A stretch of 64,000 bases of DNA from an uncultured Chlamydiae bacterium (GTDB taxonomy: Bacteria; Chlamydiota; Chlamydiia; Chlamydiales; JAJFMA01). Each line of letters begins with the position of its first letter. The first letter of the stretch is position 1. Below the pieces are notes generated by a model, which was given only the letters and a program-made list of their open reading frames with translations, did no database searches and was not told the DNA's origin. Shown here in pieces: positions 25,753 through 28,587 of the stretch. A program made the translations under genes and the position numbers. The stretch is from NCBI GenBank assembly GCA_963713615.1, contig CAVQMM010000001.1, positions 3,104,001 to 3,168,000 of the forward strand, given 5' to 3'.

Positions 25753-25832
25753 CCACCAGGTGTGCCGGCGATTGCTGGCTGAGAGCTGAACCTTTGAACC
25801 TGATCTGGATAACACCAGCGTAGGGAGAGTGG
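25753..25832 (+). ncRNA. TPP riboswitch
   Basis: ggctgaga...cctttgaacctgatctggataacaccagcgtaggga consensus elements, directly upstream of thiE homologues. Confidence 0.92.
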
Positions 25833-25910
25833 AGTGTCTATGCAATTCTTTGTCACATTCAGTTTCTTTTTTATTCCTTGGTGGATGCTAACCAAACCAA
25901 GGATCATATC

Positions 25911-26606
25911 ATGCTCACCGCTGCATCGCGGTTACCGGCCACGAAGATGGCCGTTAACCTATCACCTTGCTTAATAGCCAATGGATCTGTTGTTTCTGAT
26001 GAAAAGACATACATTAAGAGGGTCTGTCGTATCGTTGAGGCGGGTTTTAGCTGTATCCAGGTTCACTGGCCCCCTAGGGAAATACAAAAATGCGTTTCTT
26101 CGGCCATGCATTTAAAGAATCTTCTAAGTGATTCGGCTCTCGTGATTGTGAATAACCATGTCGATGCAGCTTTAGCGTCTGGTGCCGATGGAGTTCACCT
26201 GGCAGGGCATGATTTTCCTGTGGTGCATGCACGTCGTCTTTTAGGTGATAAGGCTATCATCGGATACACGCTAACATCCTGGCGGGATCTTCACGATAAA
26301 GAAACTCTCAGCCTCGTGAATTATGTAGGGATTAAGATATGGTCATCCCCTCGTTCACAGCCTGAAGGGGCTCCTCCTTGGGGCATCGAAGGTATCAAAG
26401 AGGCCCTGGAACTTCTGGAAGTTCCTGTGATTGTTTTAGGGGGCATAACCAAACAAACGCAGCCCGATATTCTACCCATTCTTCGGCTGCGTTCTGGCGA
26501 CGGCTTTGCTGTTGTTGGAGATTCTTGGCGTGCCGAAGACCCTTTAACCTTAGCCAAGGAGATGGTCGAGCTATATCATCATCATCGGGAGGGATCAATT
26601 TTATGA
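25911..26606 (+). CDS. divergent thiamine phosphate synthase-family protein (TenI-like?)
   Basis: IVNNHVD, ADGVHL, ARRLLG, PVIVLGGI; canonical catalytic motifs altered; start uncertain. Confidence 0.8.
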   Translation: MLTAASRLPATKMAVNLSPCLIANGSVVSDEKTYIKRVCRIVEAGFSCIQVHWPPREIQKCVSSAMHLKNLLSDSALVIVNNHVDAALASGADGVHLAGHDFPVVHARRLLGDKAIIGYTLTSWRDLHDKETLSLVNYVGIKIWSSPRSQPEGAPPWGIEGIKEALELLEVPVIVLGGITKQTQPDILPILRLRSGDGFAVVGDSWRAEDPLTLAKEMVELYHHHREGSIL

Positions 26607-27955
26607 AAATCAAACCCCTACTCATCATTTCTTTGTTTTGCCTCGTGGTGATGATTAGTGCCGACTTTGCCATCTTGCGGAGCTTGCGCAATACCTTAGC
26701 GGTTACCGATCTTGGTGGAAATGCTCTGCATATCCCCTATTTTGAGCTGTTCGGTACGTTGCCGGGATCGGTGCTAATGACATGGTTCCTGGGACGTCTA
26801 TTGGGTCGCTTTTCGCTAAATAGCACTTTTCAGATAACCCTGGGTATATTTCTGACTTTCTTCTTGCTCTTTGCCTTTTTTGTTTATCCTCGCGTTAGTT
26901 GTTGGAAACAGGCTTTTCCTGGTATCGCCATCGGCTTCTCCATGGGTTTTTATATCATGGCTGAGCTGTGGAAGGTGGCCCTTTTAACGCTCCTGTTCTG
27001 GGGCTTAGTCAATGAGCATATGCCTTTGACGCATGCGAAAAAACTCTATGCACCCTTAATGCTGGCTGGAAGCCTGGGGACGTTGATCGCAGGCCCGATT
27101 ATCACCGCGTTCTCGTTTTGTGATGATTGGGCATCGACTCTCAGCCAGCTCCTGCTGGTCGTTACCTTTATAGGTTGTCTGGCAGGAATTCTCTACTATG
27201 GCATTTCGCGCATGCTATCGAGAGAAACGCCTATTCGGCAATATGCACCGACTGTGGTGTCCTTACAGGCAAGTTTTGGAAGCTTCATGAATTCTTCTTA
27301 TCTAACATTGCTGGGAGGTATTGTCCTGGCAGACTATGTAGCCTATAGCCTGGGTGAGGTGATCTTCTTGGATGCGCTAAAACAGATTTATCCGCAACCA
27401 CAGGATTATTGCCGCTGGCTTGGACATTTGTCCCTTTTGAGTGGCATTCTCACAGGCATAGGAGCGTTGTGGGTGGCGCCAAAAATTTTAGAAAAATGTC
27501 GATGGGAAGTGGCAGCCTTGGCGACGCCCGTCTGCGTGTTGATTACCGAGGGAGCGTTCTTTTTGATGCTTCGACTGCCCGAAGGAAGCCAAATTCTCTT
27601 GGGATGGAGCTATCAACAATGGCTTGAGGTAATTGTGTGGTTAGGTTCGCTTCAATATTGCCTCTGCAGGGCAGCTAAGTACACCCTGTTTGATTCAAGC
27701 CGTGAACTAGCCTTCTTGATGCTTCCTAGTGAGGCGCGTCTGCCCGGCAAGCTGGTGGTGGATGGGGTATGTGCTAGAATCGGACGTGGAGCCGCATCTT
27801 TTTTAAGTCTGCTTTTTGCACACTTATGCGGAGGGGTTTTGGCAAGTGCCTGGCTGGCTGGCCTGGTCGCTTTTTTGGTCTCTGCTGGTTGGGTGACAGC
27901 CACCAGACGATTGGGAGGCCTTATCGATAGACCAGGCGAGCGTCAGGAGGCATAA
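26603..27955 (+). CDS. NTT/TLC (Npt1/Npt2-like) nucleotide transporter homologue
   Basis: ILRSLRNTL, FYIMAELW..LLFWGLVNE..AKKLY, KYTLFDSSRELAF..GKLVVDGV.ARIG; ATG at 26603 overlaps upstream stop (ATGA). Confidence 0.88.
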   Translation: MKIKPLLIISLFCLVVMISADFAILRSLRNTLAVTDLGGNALHIPYFELFGTLPGSVLMTWFLGRLLGRFSLNSTFQITLGIFLTFFLLFAFFVYPRVSCWKQAFPGIAIGFSMGFYIMAELWKVALLTLLFWGLVNEHMPLTHAKKLYAPLMLAGSLGTLIAGPIITAFSFCDDWASTLSQLLLVVTFIGCLAGILYYGISRMLSRETPIRQYAPTVVSLQASFGSFMNSSYLTLLGGIVLADYVAYSLGEVIFLDALKQIYPQPQDYCRWLGHLSLLSGILTGIGALWVAPKILEKCRWEVAALATPVCVLITEGAFFLMLRLPEGSQILLGWSYQQWLEVIVWLGSLQYCLCRAAKYTLFDSSRELAFLMLPSEARLPGKLVVDGVCARIGRGAASFLSLLFAHLCGGVLASAWLAGLVAFLVSAGWVTATRRLGGLIDRPGERQEA

Positions 27956-27957
27956 CC

Positions 27958-28587
27958 ATGTTAAAAGTAAGCTATCCATGTTTATATTTTGTAACGCCTG
28001 AAATAGGTTCAGATAGTTCTGCATGGGTCCATCTGATAAAGGAGGCCGTTTTTGGTGGTGTGAAGATGGTACAGGTGCGTGACAAGCGCAGCTCTTCAAA
28101 AAAACTGATCGAAGTCGTTGGGCTGCTTCAACCCTTTCTAAAACGCCATTCTGTGCCTCTGATTATCAATGATCGAGTGGATATCGCCTTGATCTTAAAG
28201 GCAGATGGAGTCCATATAGGCCAAAATGATTTTAGTGTGAACGATGCGCGTGCCCTTATTGGCCCAAAAGGCATCGTAGGGCTATCAGTGGAGACTTTGG
28301 ACCAGGCGGCACAGGCAGCTGGCGCTGACTACCTCGCTGCCAGCCCGATCTTTGCCACCCCAACCAAAAGGGATACTGAAAAGCCCTGGGGGTTAGCAGG
28401 CTTGAAGCTATTACGAGCACTTTCAGGTTTGCCTATCATCGCCATCGGGGGTATTAAGCATCACAATGTTCGAGAAGTTCTACAGGCTGGTGCTAATGGT
28501 ATTGCTGTGGTGTCAGCGATAGCAGCAGCCACATGTCCCAGGATGGCTGCTGCACGTCTGTGCCATGAATTAGGATTTAGGAGTTAA
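27958..28587 (+). CDS. thiE: thiamine phosphate synthase
   Basis: VQVRDK, IINDRVD, GVHIGQND, GLSV, PIFATPTK, AIGGI, VVSAI. Confidence 0.93.
   Translation: MLKVSYPCLYFVTPEIGSDSSAWVHLIKEAVFGGVKMVQVRDKRSSSKKLIEVVGLLQPFLKRHSVPLIINDRVDIALILKADGVHIGQNDFSVNDARALIGPKGIVGLSVETLDQAAQAAGADYLAASPIFATPTKRDTEKPWGLAGLKLLRALSGLPIIAIGGIKHHNVREVLQAGANGIAVVSAIAAATCPRMAAARLCHELGFRS

Follow-up and report, generated by a model that had tools for sequence, protein, structure and literature searches.

Energy and nucleotide parasitism has its hallmark in the NTT/TLC carriers, for which the available text of two reports lists nucleotides and NAD+ as substrates (PMC5381601, PMC6995639). What, then, is transported by a member of this family whose gene lies in a TPP-riboswitch operon, next to a thiamine-phosphate synthase gene? 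Such a gene occurs in the 64,000-nucleotide stretch of DNA (the window) that we analyzed from the genome of an uncultured Chlamydiae bacterium (G000). The question matters as the supply of thiamine diphosphate to obligate intracellular bacteria is an open gap, with the need for this cofactor stated for Rickettsia and no transporter identified in the available text of PMC5615194, and the carrier is a concrete candidate to fill it.

Layout of the operon and the genes beside the carrier

The order of the operon, on the plus strand, is a TPP riboswitch, a divergent ThiE-like gene that we term E*, the TLC/NTT carrier and a canonical thiE, with tight coupling throughout. The sequence-only reading had proposed this order, and it was borne out at each step. 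The Rfam covariance-model test placed an RF00059 aptamer at 25748-25844 with 67.9 bits (cmscan, E 3.3e-11), above the gathering score of 54.3. The ATGA overlap of E* with the carrier is present at 26603-26606, as is the 2-nt spacing between the carrier stop and thiE. A predicted anti-Shine-Dalgarno hairpin (25875-25903, +; fold of -11.7 kcal/mol, z -1.1 when taken alone) covers a purine-rich site at 25899-25903, and in the fold of 25748-25897 its 5' arm has an alternative pairing with the 5' strand of aptamer P1. A hairpin over the same region was present in all seven of the E*-NTT leaders that were folded. Hairpin and alternative pairing form a predicted translational OFF switch: at low TPP, the P1 strand would pair with the anti-SD arm and E*, the NTT and thiE would be translated in a coupled way, and with TPP bound the hairpin would be free to hide the ribosome site. 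A promoter and terminator scan gave a result at chance level.

The gene that follows the carrier (27958-28587, +) scored 190.9 against the TIGR00693 cut-off of 145.1 and keeps its motifs intact, as in 69 canonical homologues, confirming it as a canonical ThiE. A genome-wide inventory identified Thi5-like, ThiD and TenA-like proteins and a thiamine pyrophosphokinase, and found no ThiM, ThiG, ThiC or ThiL. The claim that thiD is lacking holds for the operon and not for the genome, in which the gene is present elsewhere with a TPP riboswitch of its own and a Thi5-like gene. A weak match to ThiG was rejected as an IMP dehydrogenase/GMP reductase-like protein, Thi4 was rejected on the basis of N-terminal matches of only about 40 residues, and searches of this genome for PnuC, ThiB, ThiC and the riboswitch-type MFS transporter found none. 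The genome encodes a full salvage set for NAD from nicotinamide (PncA-PncB-NadD-NadE). It also carries an unregulated NMT1-like ABC permease/binding-protein fusion, which could supply a precursor.

The open reading frame of E* spans 25878-26606 (+), and its likely ATG start at 25911 gives a protein of 231 aa (25911-26606), as long as gene call P0153 of the database. It is ThiE-like, as had been claimed, with 91.5 bits against PF02581, although its 87.5 bits against TIGR00693 are below the cut-off. Its model (pLDDT 89.4) has the TIM-barrel ThiE fold, with thiamine phosphate synthases as the best structural matches and TenI structures matching lower. E* proteins nevertheless form their own clade (SH-aLRT 100), apart from ThiE and from the genes at the TenI position of thiG operons, and have H, P, N, T, Q and G at the invariant R, K, D, S, K and S positions of ThiE. 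These six positions, which we take to have catalytic roles, are 99-100% conserved among the 69 canonical homologues, and with these active-site motifs lost E* is predicted to lack TMP synthase activity. A role as the thiazole tautomerase TenI was rejected given an NF005819 score of 44 bits against a cut-off of 251 and the separate clade. ThiG was found in none of the ten genomes with a thiamine-linked carrier (see below), so the co-occurrence of TenI with ThiG does not extend to E*, which is found mostly in the absence of ThiG.

We consider E*, detected in 22 of 400 genomes, to be an undescribed family of ThiE paralogues with a transporter gene nearly always next: the following gene encodes this NTT in five genomes and an MFS transporter in 15, one genome has no transporter there and in one the contig ends. 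In the E* tree the E*-MFS proteins nest inside the E*-NTT ones, and in 12 genomes the gene after E*-MFS encodes a member of the mitochondrial carrier family (PF00153). E* of the window has a short, presequence-like N-terminal extension that contains Arg and Ser and no acidic residues. Across the set, these extensions have a median length of 23 aa, with 13% Arg, 18% Ser and <2% acidic residues, and 34 of 43 passed a simple presequence rule, versus 176 of 1643 control N-termini. Based on this composition, these counts and the PF00153 protein, we speculate, as a scenario that is rather improbable, that vitamin B1 theft could be two-sided: E* would be secreted and enter host mitochondria by its N-terminus, freeing TMP or TPP from the main store, and the NTT, or the MFS and mitochondrial-carrier-family proteins of the sister cassette, would import the thiamine phosphate. 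Such an N-terminus could equally be a signal for type III secretion or the relic of a longer extension.

The carrier and thiamine linkage within its clade

The carrier (P0001; 26603-27955, +; 450 aa) had been read as a TLC-family protein, and its 243.4 bits against PF03219 (E 6e-72, curated cut-off 21) confirm its place in the NTT/TLC (AAA) family. Its score against TIGR00769, the canonical NTP/NDP exchange transporters, was 202.8 bits, below the cut-off of 387.2. The structure model (pLDDT 88.9) has an NTT1-like helical MFS-type fold, and its top five Foldseek matches are the NTT1 proteins of Chlamydia pneumoniae and Arabidopsis (TM 0.67-0.90, E about 1e-13 to 1e-17). At the position of the lysine that marks ATP/ADP exchangers (AtNTT1 527/PamNTT1 446), P0001 has Arg395, as do all ten thiamine-linked rows of the alignment when mapped by hand count. 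The sequence-only reading had argued for altered specificity from changes at usual family positions (RSLRNTL, ELWKV, FDSSRE). That argument fails, and the changes were rejected as a thiamine signature, because they are clade-wide and common to unlinked members, many of them near NAD kinase. In the alignment, R29/N30 and K124 occur throughout the whole clade, thiamine-linked or not, and FDSSRE has K in place of its R in nine of ten thiamine-linked rows and in 7/7 canonical paralogues. The polar signature of the carrier is likewise common to unlinked members and to a paralogue in the same genome, which is unregulated and adjoins gpsA and nnr. P0001 as the sole query against the genome contigs gave no match.

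The chlamydial NTT clade to which the carrier belongs was present in 84 of 400 sampled genomes, with four candidates scored per genome, such that more carriers may exist, and no characterized member was found in it. None of 29 Chlamydiaceae had the clade, and no Protochlamydia or Simkania names were among the best 120 proteins or 80 loci; one of the proteins, P0060, bears the source name Estrella lausannensis. The co-occurrence with TPP riboswitches and thiE on which the earlier proposal depended was found: orthologues are tied to a riboswitch, thiE or thiL in ten genomes of at least five families (G000, G101, G064 (f1), G346, G177 (f29), G160 (f10), G234 (f6), G254 (f3), G401 and G402). Four layouts were observed, namely switch-E*-NTT (thiE present or absent), switch-NTT (a stand-alone unit in G177), NTT-thiL and E*-NTT-thiE-thiL-thiD. 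In G254 and G401, thiL comes directly after the carrier or thiE. Elsewhere, the same switch-E* cassette holds an MFS transporter in the slot of the carrier. At E<1e-80, a cut picked after the results were known, that riboswitch-linked MFS family was found in one of the ten linked genomes versus 35 of the 71 others with the clade; at 1e-30, it was found in 46 of the 71 (the MFS and pyrophosphokinase searches did not include G033 and G109, and G005 was unscored).

Most clade members are unlinked to thiamine (linked loci were 8/80 in genomes and 1/56 in metagenomes). NAD kinase lies within 3.5 kb at 36 of the 80 clade loci, in two subclades, as part of a conserved xseA-NADK-holB-tmk block whose order around the carrier varies, and typA is near 16 of the 80. 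A single clade of linked carriers was rejected in a 36-row quick tree (AU p=0.004), and thus the thiamine link either goes back far and was often lost, or arose more than once. The linked genomes have a larger average size and are mutually related, which overstates the significance of the MFS contrast above and of the following ones with other clade genomes: canonical ThiE without ThiM or ThiG (7/10 versus 0/73), ThiL or pyrophosphokinase (10/10 versus 21/71) and ThiL alone (5/10 versus 3/73; G158, G182 and G352, of 83 non-own clade genomes, were left out of the riboswitch, ThiE and ThiL searches). ThiM is missing in nine of the ten linked genomes. Thiamine pyrophosphokinase is present in six, being split in G234, where the sequence has ambiguous bases, and was not found in G160, G254, G401 and G402, all four of which have ThiL. 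ThiD was not found in G101, G346, G160, G234 and G177, all with an intact ThiE. NadE was found in 52 of the 60 genomes that its search covered, all of them with the clade.

Weighing the candidate cargoes

Given the observed layout, fold, recurring link and pathway gaps, the cargo is probably a thiamine-pathway phosphate of one kind or another. More specifically, we tentatively favor uptake from the host cytosol of thiamine in phosphorylated form, foremost TMP, and possibly also of thiazole phosphate. The thiamine-phosphate reading is retained in so far as the link to thiamine genes recurs, and it has lost its motif argument. The pathway inventories are what favor TMP, perhaps with thiazole phosphate, over TPP or the ThiE substrates alone; TMP import directly explains G254, which has NTT-thiL and neither canonical ThiE nor pyrophosphokinase. 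Judging from the alignment, the phosphate may be held by the retained basic residues R26, R29, K124, R356, K359, R392 and R395, and the cationic thiazolium ring by E48, D244, Y245 and Y248, which are acidic or aromatic and specific to the clade. Imported TMP would be converted to TPP by ThiL where the genome has it. In the present genome, which is without ThiL, it would pass through a putative phosphatase (no TMP phosphatase was identified) and then thiamine pyrophosphokinase, and any thiazole phosphate taken up would serve ThiE as a substrate alongside HMP-PP from the Thi5-like/ThiD pair. Counting against a thiamine cargo are the many unlinked clade members and the polar signature that they share. 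Moreover, TMP import alone would leave the intact ThiE of the five genomes in which ThiD was not found without substrates. ADP-thiazole was also considered as a substrate, with nothing in support.

Import of finished TPP, with the adjoining enzymes merely co-regulated neighbors, would work in all ten linked genomes with no further enzymes needed, and TPP is the main cytosolic form of thiamine in eukaryotes. In addition, all five searched genomes of family f30 (84-92% complete) have pyruvate dehydrogenase E1 and a clade NTT, whereas searches of them for the riboswitch, ThiE, ThiL, pyrophosphokinase and the riboswitch-type MFS found none, such that they need intact TPP from somewhere. We nevertheless judge this reading unlikely, as TPP import requires neither the ThiL or pyrophosphokinase kept in every linked genome nor a thiL placed directly after the carrier or thiE, and the Chlamydiaceae, without the clade, indicate that other TPP routes exist. 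The seven linked genomes that have ThiE and no thiazole source, five of which also lack ThiD, would instead fit import of only thiazole phosphate and HMP-PP for joining by ThiE. So would the present genome, in which thiazole phosphate is the sole gap beside Thi5-like, ThiD and ThiE, and G167 of the same genus, which has thiD-thiO-thiG-thiE-thiF and no linked carrier. This is quite unlikely, however, given that G064 (99% complete) and G254 (91%) have a linked carrier and no ThiE over the cut-off, and both compounds would be expected to be scarce in the host cytosol.

It is also improbable that NAD+, NMN/NaMN or ordinary nucleotides are the cargo of the clade, with the operon position due to hitch-hiking or an indirect need. 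Nucleotides and NAD+ are the characterized NTT substrates cited above, the nearby NAD kinase genes fit an NAD-type cargo, as does the paralogue adjoining gpsA and nnr, and an acidic/aromatic pocket would suit a pyridinium ring no less than a thiazolium ring. Such a cargo leaves unexplained the four thiamine layouts, the riboswitch-NTT unit of G177 and the MFS swap; the NAD kinase belongs to a conserved block of varying order, NadE is frequent among the clade genomes, and the present genome has the full nicotinamide salvage route. Uptake of unphosphorylated thiamine (or thiazole/HMP), as by ordinary riboswitch-controlled transporters, is very unlikely. Pyrophosphokinase, which uses free thiamine, is present in six linked genomes, and the MFS replaced by the carrier could be a thiamine carrier, but the other four linked genomes have ThiL instead, the frequent lack of ThiM speaks against free thiamine or thiazole, and the positions for phosphate binding have stayed basic, R395 among them.

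Thiamine phosphate, the likely cargo, was not found as a substrate of the NTT family in the literature searched. A thiamine-phosphate NTT would extend the family to a second class of cofactors and would warn against annotating this clade, with its presence in more than a fifth of the sampled genomes, as ATP/ADP translocases.

Comparison with known systems

The carrier is of the same Pfam family as PamNTT1 and the NTT1 proteins of Chlamydia pneumoniae and Arabidopsis (PDB 9J3N/9J3O, 9J3J/9J3L/9J3M) and has the NTT1 fold at about 25% identity, with TM up to 0.90. It differs from NTT1 in its score below the TIGR00769 cut-off, in Glu48 at the AtNTT1 K155 position, in the Arg at the K527 place, in K124 and D244-Y245-Y248, which are new in the carrier, and in its TPP-riboswitch control. 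By hand count, AtNTT1 E245 and E385 map to E121 and E252 of the carrier, and K527 to the basic R395. According to the available text of PMC2606016, the lysine at AtNTT1 527/PamNTT1 446 is conserved in all ATP/ADP transporters, and Vmax is strongly lowered in PamNTT1 K446R.

PamNTT4 and other NAD+-carrying NTTs have a cargo that is like the one proposed here, in being not a plain nucleotide but a cofactor whose heteroaromatic ring is cationic (available text of PMC6995639), and PamNTT4 groups outside the canonical NTT subfamily (available text of PMC5381601). In contrast to PamNTT4, the carrier is tied to thiamine genes, in a genome that can make NAD from nicotinamide. The literature consulted, which was mostly at the level of abstracts (with passages of PMC5381601, PMC2606016, PMC10301204, PMC6995639 and PMC11317633 among others), ties no NTT to thiamine, and thiamin, riboswitch, vitamin and cofactor have 0 occurrences in the PMC5381601 text. 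None of the riboswitch-controlled thiamine transporters in the available text of PMC3020362 is an NTT/TLC protein, unlike the carrier. As described there, ThiBPQ handles both thiamine and TPP, and the genes for ThiBPQ, YkoCDEF, YuaJ/ThiT, PnuT, ThiXYZ and CytX are, like that of the carrier, transporter genes under a THI element that adjoin salvage genes.

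Organization and predicted control of the operon

A TPP riboswitch (25748-25844; Rfam, 67.9 bits versus a gathering score of 54.3) heads three coupled genes on the + strand: E*, a divergent ThiE-fold gene (likely 25911-26606; PF02581, 91.5 bits; TIGR00693, 87.5 versus a cut-off of 145.1), the TLC/NTT-family carrier of 450 aa (P0001; 26603-27955; PF03219, 243 bits; TIGR00769, 202.8 versus 387.2) and canonical thiE (27958-28587; TIGR00693, 190.9). The riboswitch, the ATGA overlap between E* and the carrier and the 2-nt gap before thiE were all as described in the sequence-only reading. 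In the leader that separates the aptamer from the ATG at 25911, folding predicts a hairpin (25875-25903) that would cover the ribosome site and whose 5' arm has an alternative partner in the aptamer P1 strand; taken alone it is unexceptional (z -1.1), and a hairpin was found at the ribosome site in 7/7 E*-NTT leaders folded. Based on these folds, we infer that TPP would repress translation of the operon. Directly 3' of thiE is a long imperfect inverted repeat (28588-28746, arms about 28588-28615 and 28717-28746), which may represent either a mobile repeat element or a bidirectional terminator ahead of the convergent gene.

E* retains the ThiE fold. Of 69 canonical homologues, 99-100% carry R, K, D, S, K and S at six positions where the E* of the source genome, G000, carries H, P, N, T, Q and G; across 47 E* proteins, most of the six are altered. 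It is predicted to bind thiamine phosphate or to act as a new hydrolase, and not to be a synthase; the identification of E* as TenI was ruled out by score and gene context. The N-terminal extension of E* (P0121-P0167; window 25911-25955), with a median of 23 aa versus 4 and a composition of 13% Arg, 18% Ser and 1.6% acidic residues, looks like either a mitochondrial presequence or a secretion signal. A simple, self-made presequence rule was passed by 34/43 E* proteins, which are related to one another, versus 176/1643 ORF starts of G000. The motif R-x-[FYL]-[SA] occurred in 10/43 extensions versus 84/1643 controls. Targeting of E* to host mitochondria is speculation, because the rule was devised here, the sequences share descent and secretion signals have a similar appearance.

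Distribution of the thiamine link and exchange of transporters

The chlamydial NTT clade containing the carrier was detected in 84 of 400 sampled genomes of the phylum (E<1e-60), including 0/29 of family f4 and 1/46 of f6, with four candidates scored per genome. Among the 81 of these 84 clade genomes examined for a thiamine link, eight had a linked carrier, that is, one tied to thiamine genes or a TPP riboswitch, and a separate locus survey added G401 and G402, bringing the total to ten. Their arrangements were as follows: riboswitch-E*-NTT-thiE in G000, G101, G160 and G234 (E* broken in G234), riboswitch-E*-NTT in G064, G346 and G402, riboswitch-NTT alone in G177, NTT-thiL at a contig start in G254, and E*-NTT-thiE-thiL-thiD without a riboswitch in G401. 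These carriers are spread over families f1, f29, f10, f6 and f3, and the TPP-riboswitch operon with an NTT carrier is real and conserved. The anticipated link of orthologues to riboswitches or thi genes held in ten genomes, but most clade members are unlinked: linkage is a minority state, seen in 8/80 genome loci and in 1/56 metagenome loci, the latter with partial riboswitch matches only. NAD kinase was nearby in 36/80 clade loci and typA in 16/80. In the tree, linked and unlinked proteins are intermixed, and a single clade of linked carriers was rejected by the AU test (p=0.004; 11 of 36 rows, quick tree); thus the link either dates from the ancestor of a subclade and was lost many times, or arose on several separate occasions. 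Genes for TPP-dependent enzymes, either transketolase or, together with menG-menF, a gene that we take to be menD, adjoin some unlinked members (among L156, L201, L215, L083, L084, L087, L103, L107 and L137), which may be chance.

E* was identified in 22/400 genomes and forms one clade (SH-aLRT 100), in which MFS-linked copies are nested among NTT-linked ones. The gene after E* was an NTT of this clade in 5, a member of one MFS family in 15 and no transporter in 1, with a contig end in 1. This MFS family was present in 1/10 linked genomes (G254) versus 35 of the 71 other clade genomes when E<1e-80 was required, and 46/71 of the others at a looser 1e-30. Two transporters with one job would be expected to show such an exchange. 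A mitochondrial-carrier-family protein (PF00153), a family not found in G000, followed E*-MFS in 12 of the 15 genomes, all chlamydial; the riboswitch-E*-MFS-PF00153 cassette occurs at L040-L047, L249, L250, L252 and L253. At most of the loci L062-L079 a TPP riboswitch is directly 5' of the same MFS family without E*, and at L065 transketolase follows.

Gene inventory of the source genome and features of the carrier

G000 (3.97 Mb, 99.1% complete) has nine NTT genes, five of canonical type being in a tandem array (L002, G000:C1:2754300-2762600), and three TPP riboswitches, of which the one heading the carrier operon is the only one to control a transporter. Another precedes a Thi5/NMT1-like gene and thiD (L008:3991-5734, + strand, G000:C1 near 2,640,000), a unit that resembles the first two genes of full de novo operons in G132 and G126 and in which no trace of thiO or thiG was detected. 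The third heads a very divergent TenA-like protein (L009:9619-10476, - strand, G000:C1 near 558,000; PF03070, 26 bits), whose N-terminal extension is also acid-free. Thiamine pyrophosphokinase is encoded, and genome searches found no ThiM, Thi4, ThiL, ThiC, PnuC or ThiB; a weak ThiG match was an IMP dehydrogenase/GMP reductase-like protein. The absence of thiM, thiG and thiC noted from the window therefore extends to the genome, whereas thiD is present outside the operon. Because of this inventory, G000 can likely make HMP-PP and couple it, but nothing in it is recognisable as a source of thiazole phosphate. An ABC permease fused to an NMT1/SsuA-like binding domain, without a TPP riboswitch (L258:3322-5133, - strand, G000:C1:1413321-1415132), could import a thiamine precursor or sulfonate.

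The carrier is an NTT family member outside the canonical ATP/ADP exchangers; its model (pLDDT 88.9) best matched C. pneumoniae and Arabidopsis NTT1 structures (TM 0.67-0.90), and no characterised NTT was among the best 120 proteins or 80 loci of the clade searches. A second clade member in G000 (L001:7814-9250, - strand), 42% identical and without a riboswitch, is flanked by a tail-specific protease gene on one side and gpsA-nnr on the other, with orthologues in G101, G064 and G167. R29, E48, K124, D244, Y245, Y248 and C353 distinguish the clade from the seven canonical NTTs of G000 and are common to its linked and unlinked members; therefore the altered motifs, previously read as consistent with changed specificity, mark the clade and not thiamine. 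A hand count puts E48 at AtNTT1 K155 and pairs E121 and E252 with AtNTT1 E245 and E385. R395, also counted by hand on the alignment, is at the AtNTT1 K527/PamNTT1 K446 position, where the consulted part of PMC2606016 describes a lysine that binds gamma-phosphate or Pi.

Candidate substrates and known systems

The carrier has probably been repurposed for a thiamine phosphate. ThiL or pyrophosphokinase was present in 10/10 linked genomes (pyrophosphokinase split in G234) versus 21/71 others, and ThiL in 5/10 versus 3/73, although for all linked-versus-other contrasts Fisher values are inflated by kinship and larger genome size and were not relied on. The presence of one or other kinase in every linked genome points to a substrate upstream of TPP, which makes import of TPP itself unlikely. 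G160, G254, G401 and G402 need TMP, since they have ThiL and no pyrophosphokinase was found in them; G254 and G064 are without canonical ThiE. TMP import fits all ten linked genomes, provided that the pyrophosphokinase-only ones, in which no TMP phosphatase was identified, possess this enzyme. It does not explain why 7/10 linked genomes (versus 0/73 others) retain ThiE without ThiM or ThiG, five of them also without ThiD; in the six other clade genomes with ThiE, the gene is in thiM or thiG operons. Imported thiazole phosphate, a moiety also contained in TMP, would close the pathway gap in G000 and G401, and G167, of the same genus as G000, encodes the de novo thiazole operon and lacks a linked carrier.

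Our candidate substrate is, tentatively and with slightly less than even confidence, TMP with or without thiazole phosphate; import of building blocks only is quite improbable, and uptake of free thiamine very unlikely. A pocket formed by acidic and aromatic residues together with the retained basic ones would accommodate a cationic ring and a phosphate, a description that TMP and NMN fit equally; transport of NAD, NMN or nucleotides nevertheless appears doubtful. G000 can make NAD from nicotinamide (PncA, PncB, NadD and NadE all above cut-offs), and glutamine-dependent NadE was present in 52/60 clade-carrying genomes, a panel that held clade-carrying genomes only and so provides no contrast. 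By contrast, the usual account of chlamydiae is that they do not synthesise NAD.

No NTT-thiamine link was found in the openly accessible main texts and abstracts searched, and a term search of the available text of PMC5381601 returned no thiamine terms. According to that text, heterologous assays of SnNTT4 showed no nucleotide transport, and most NTT diversity is untested. Substrates described in the portions consulted of PMC6995639 and PMC11317633 are ATP/ADP/Pi, other nucleotides and NAD+. For Rickettsia, the sections available of PMC5615194 give import of thiamine diphosphate as a requirement and identify no carrier for it. The known riboswitch-controlled thiamine transporters, as covered in the accessible part of PMC3020362, differ from the carrier in belonging to families other than NTT.
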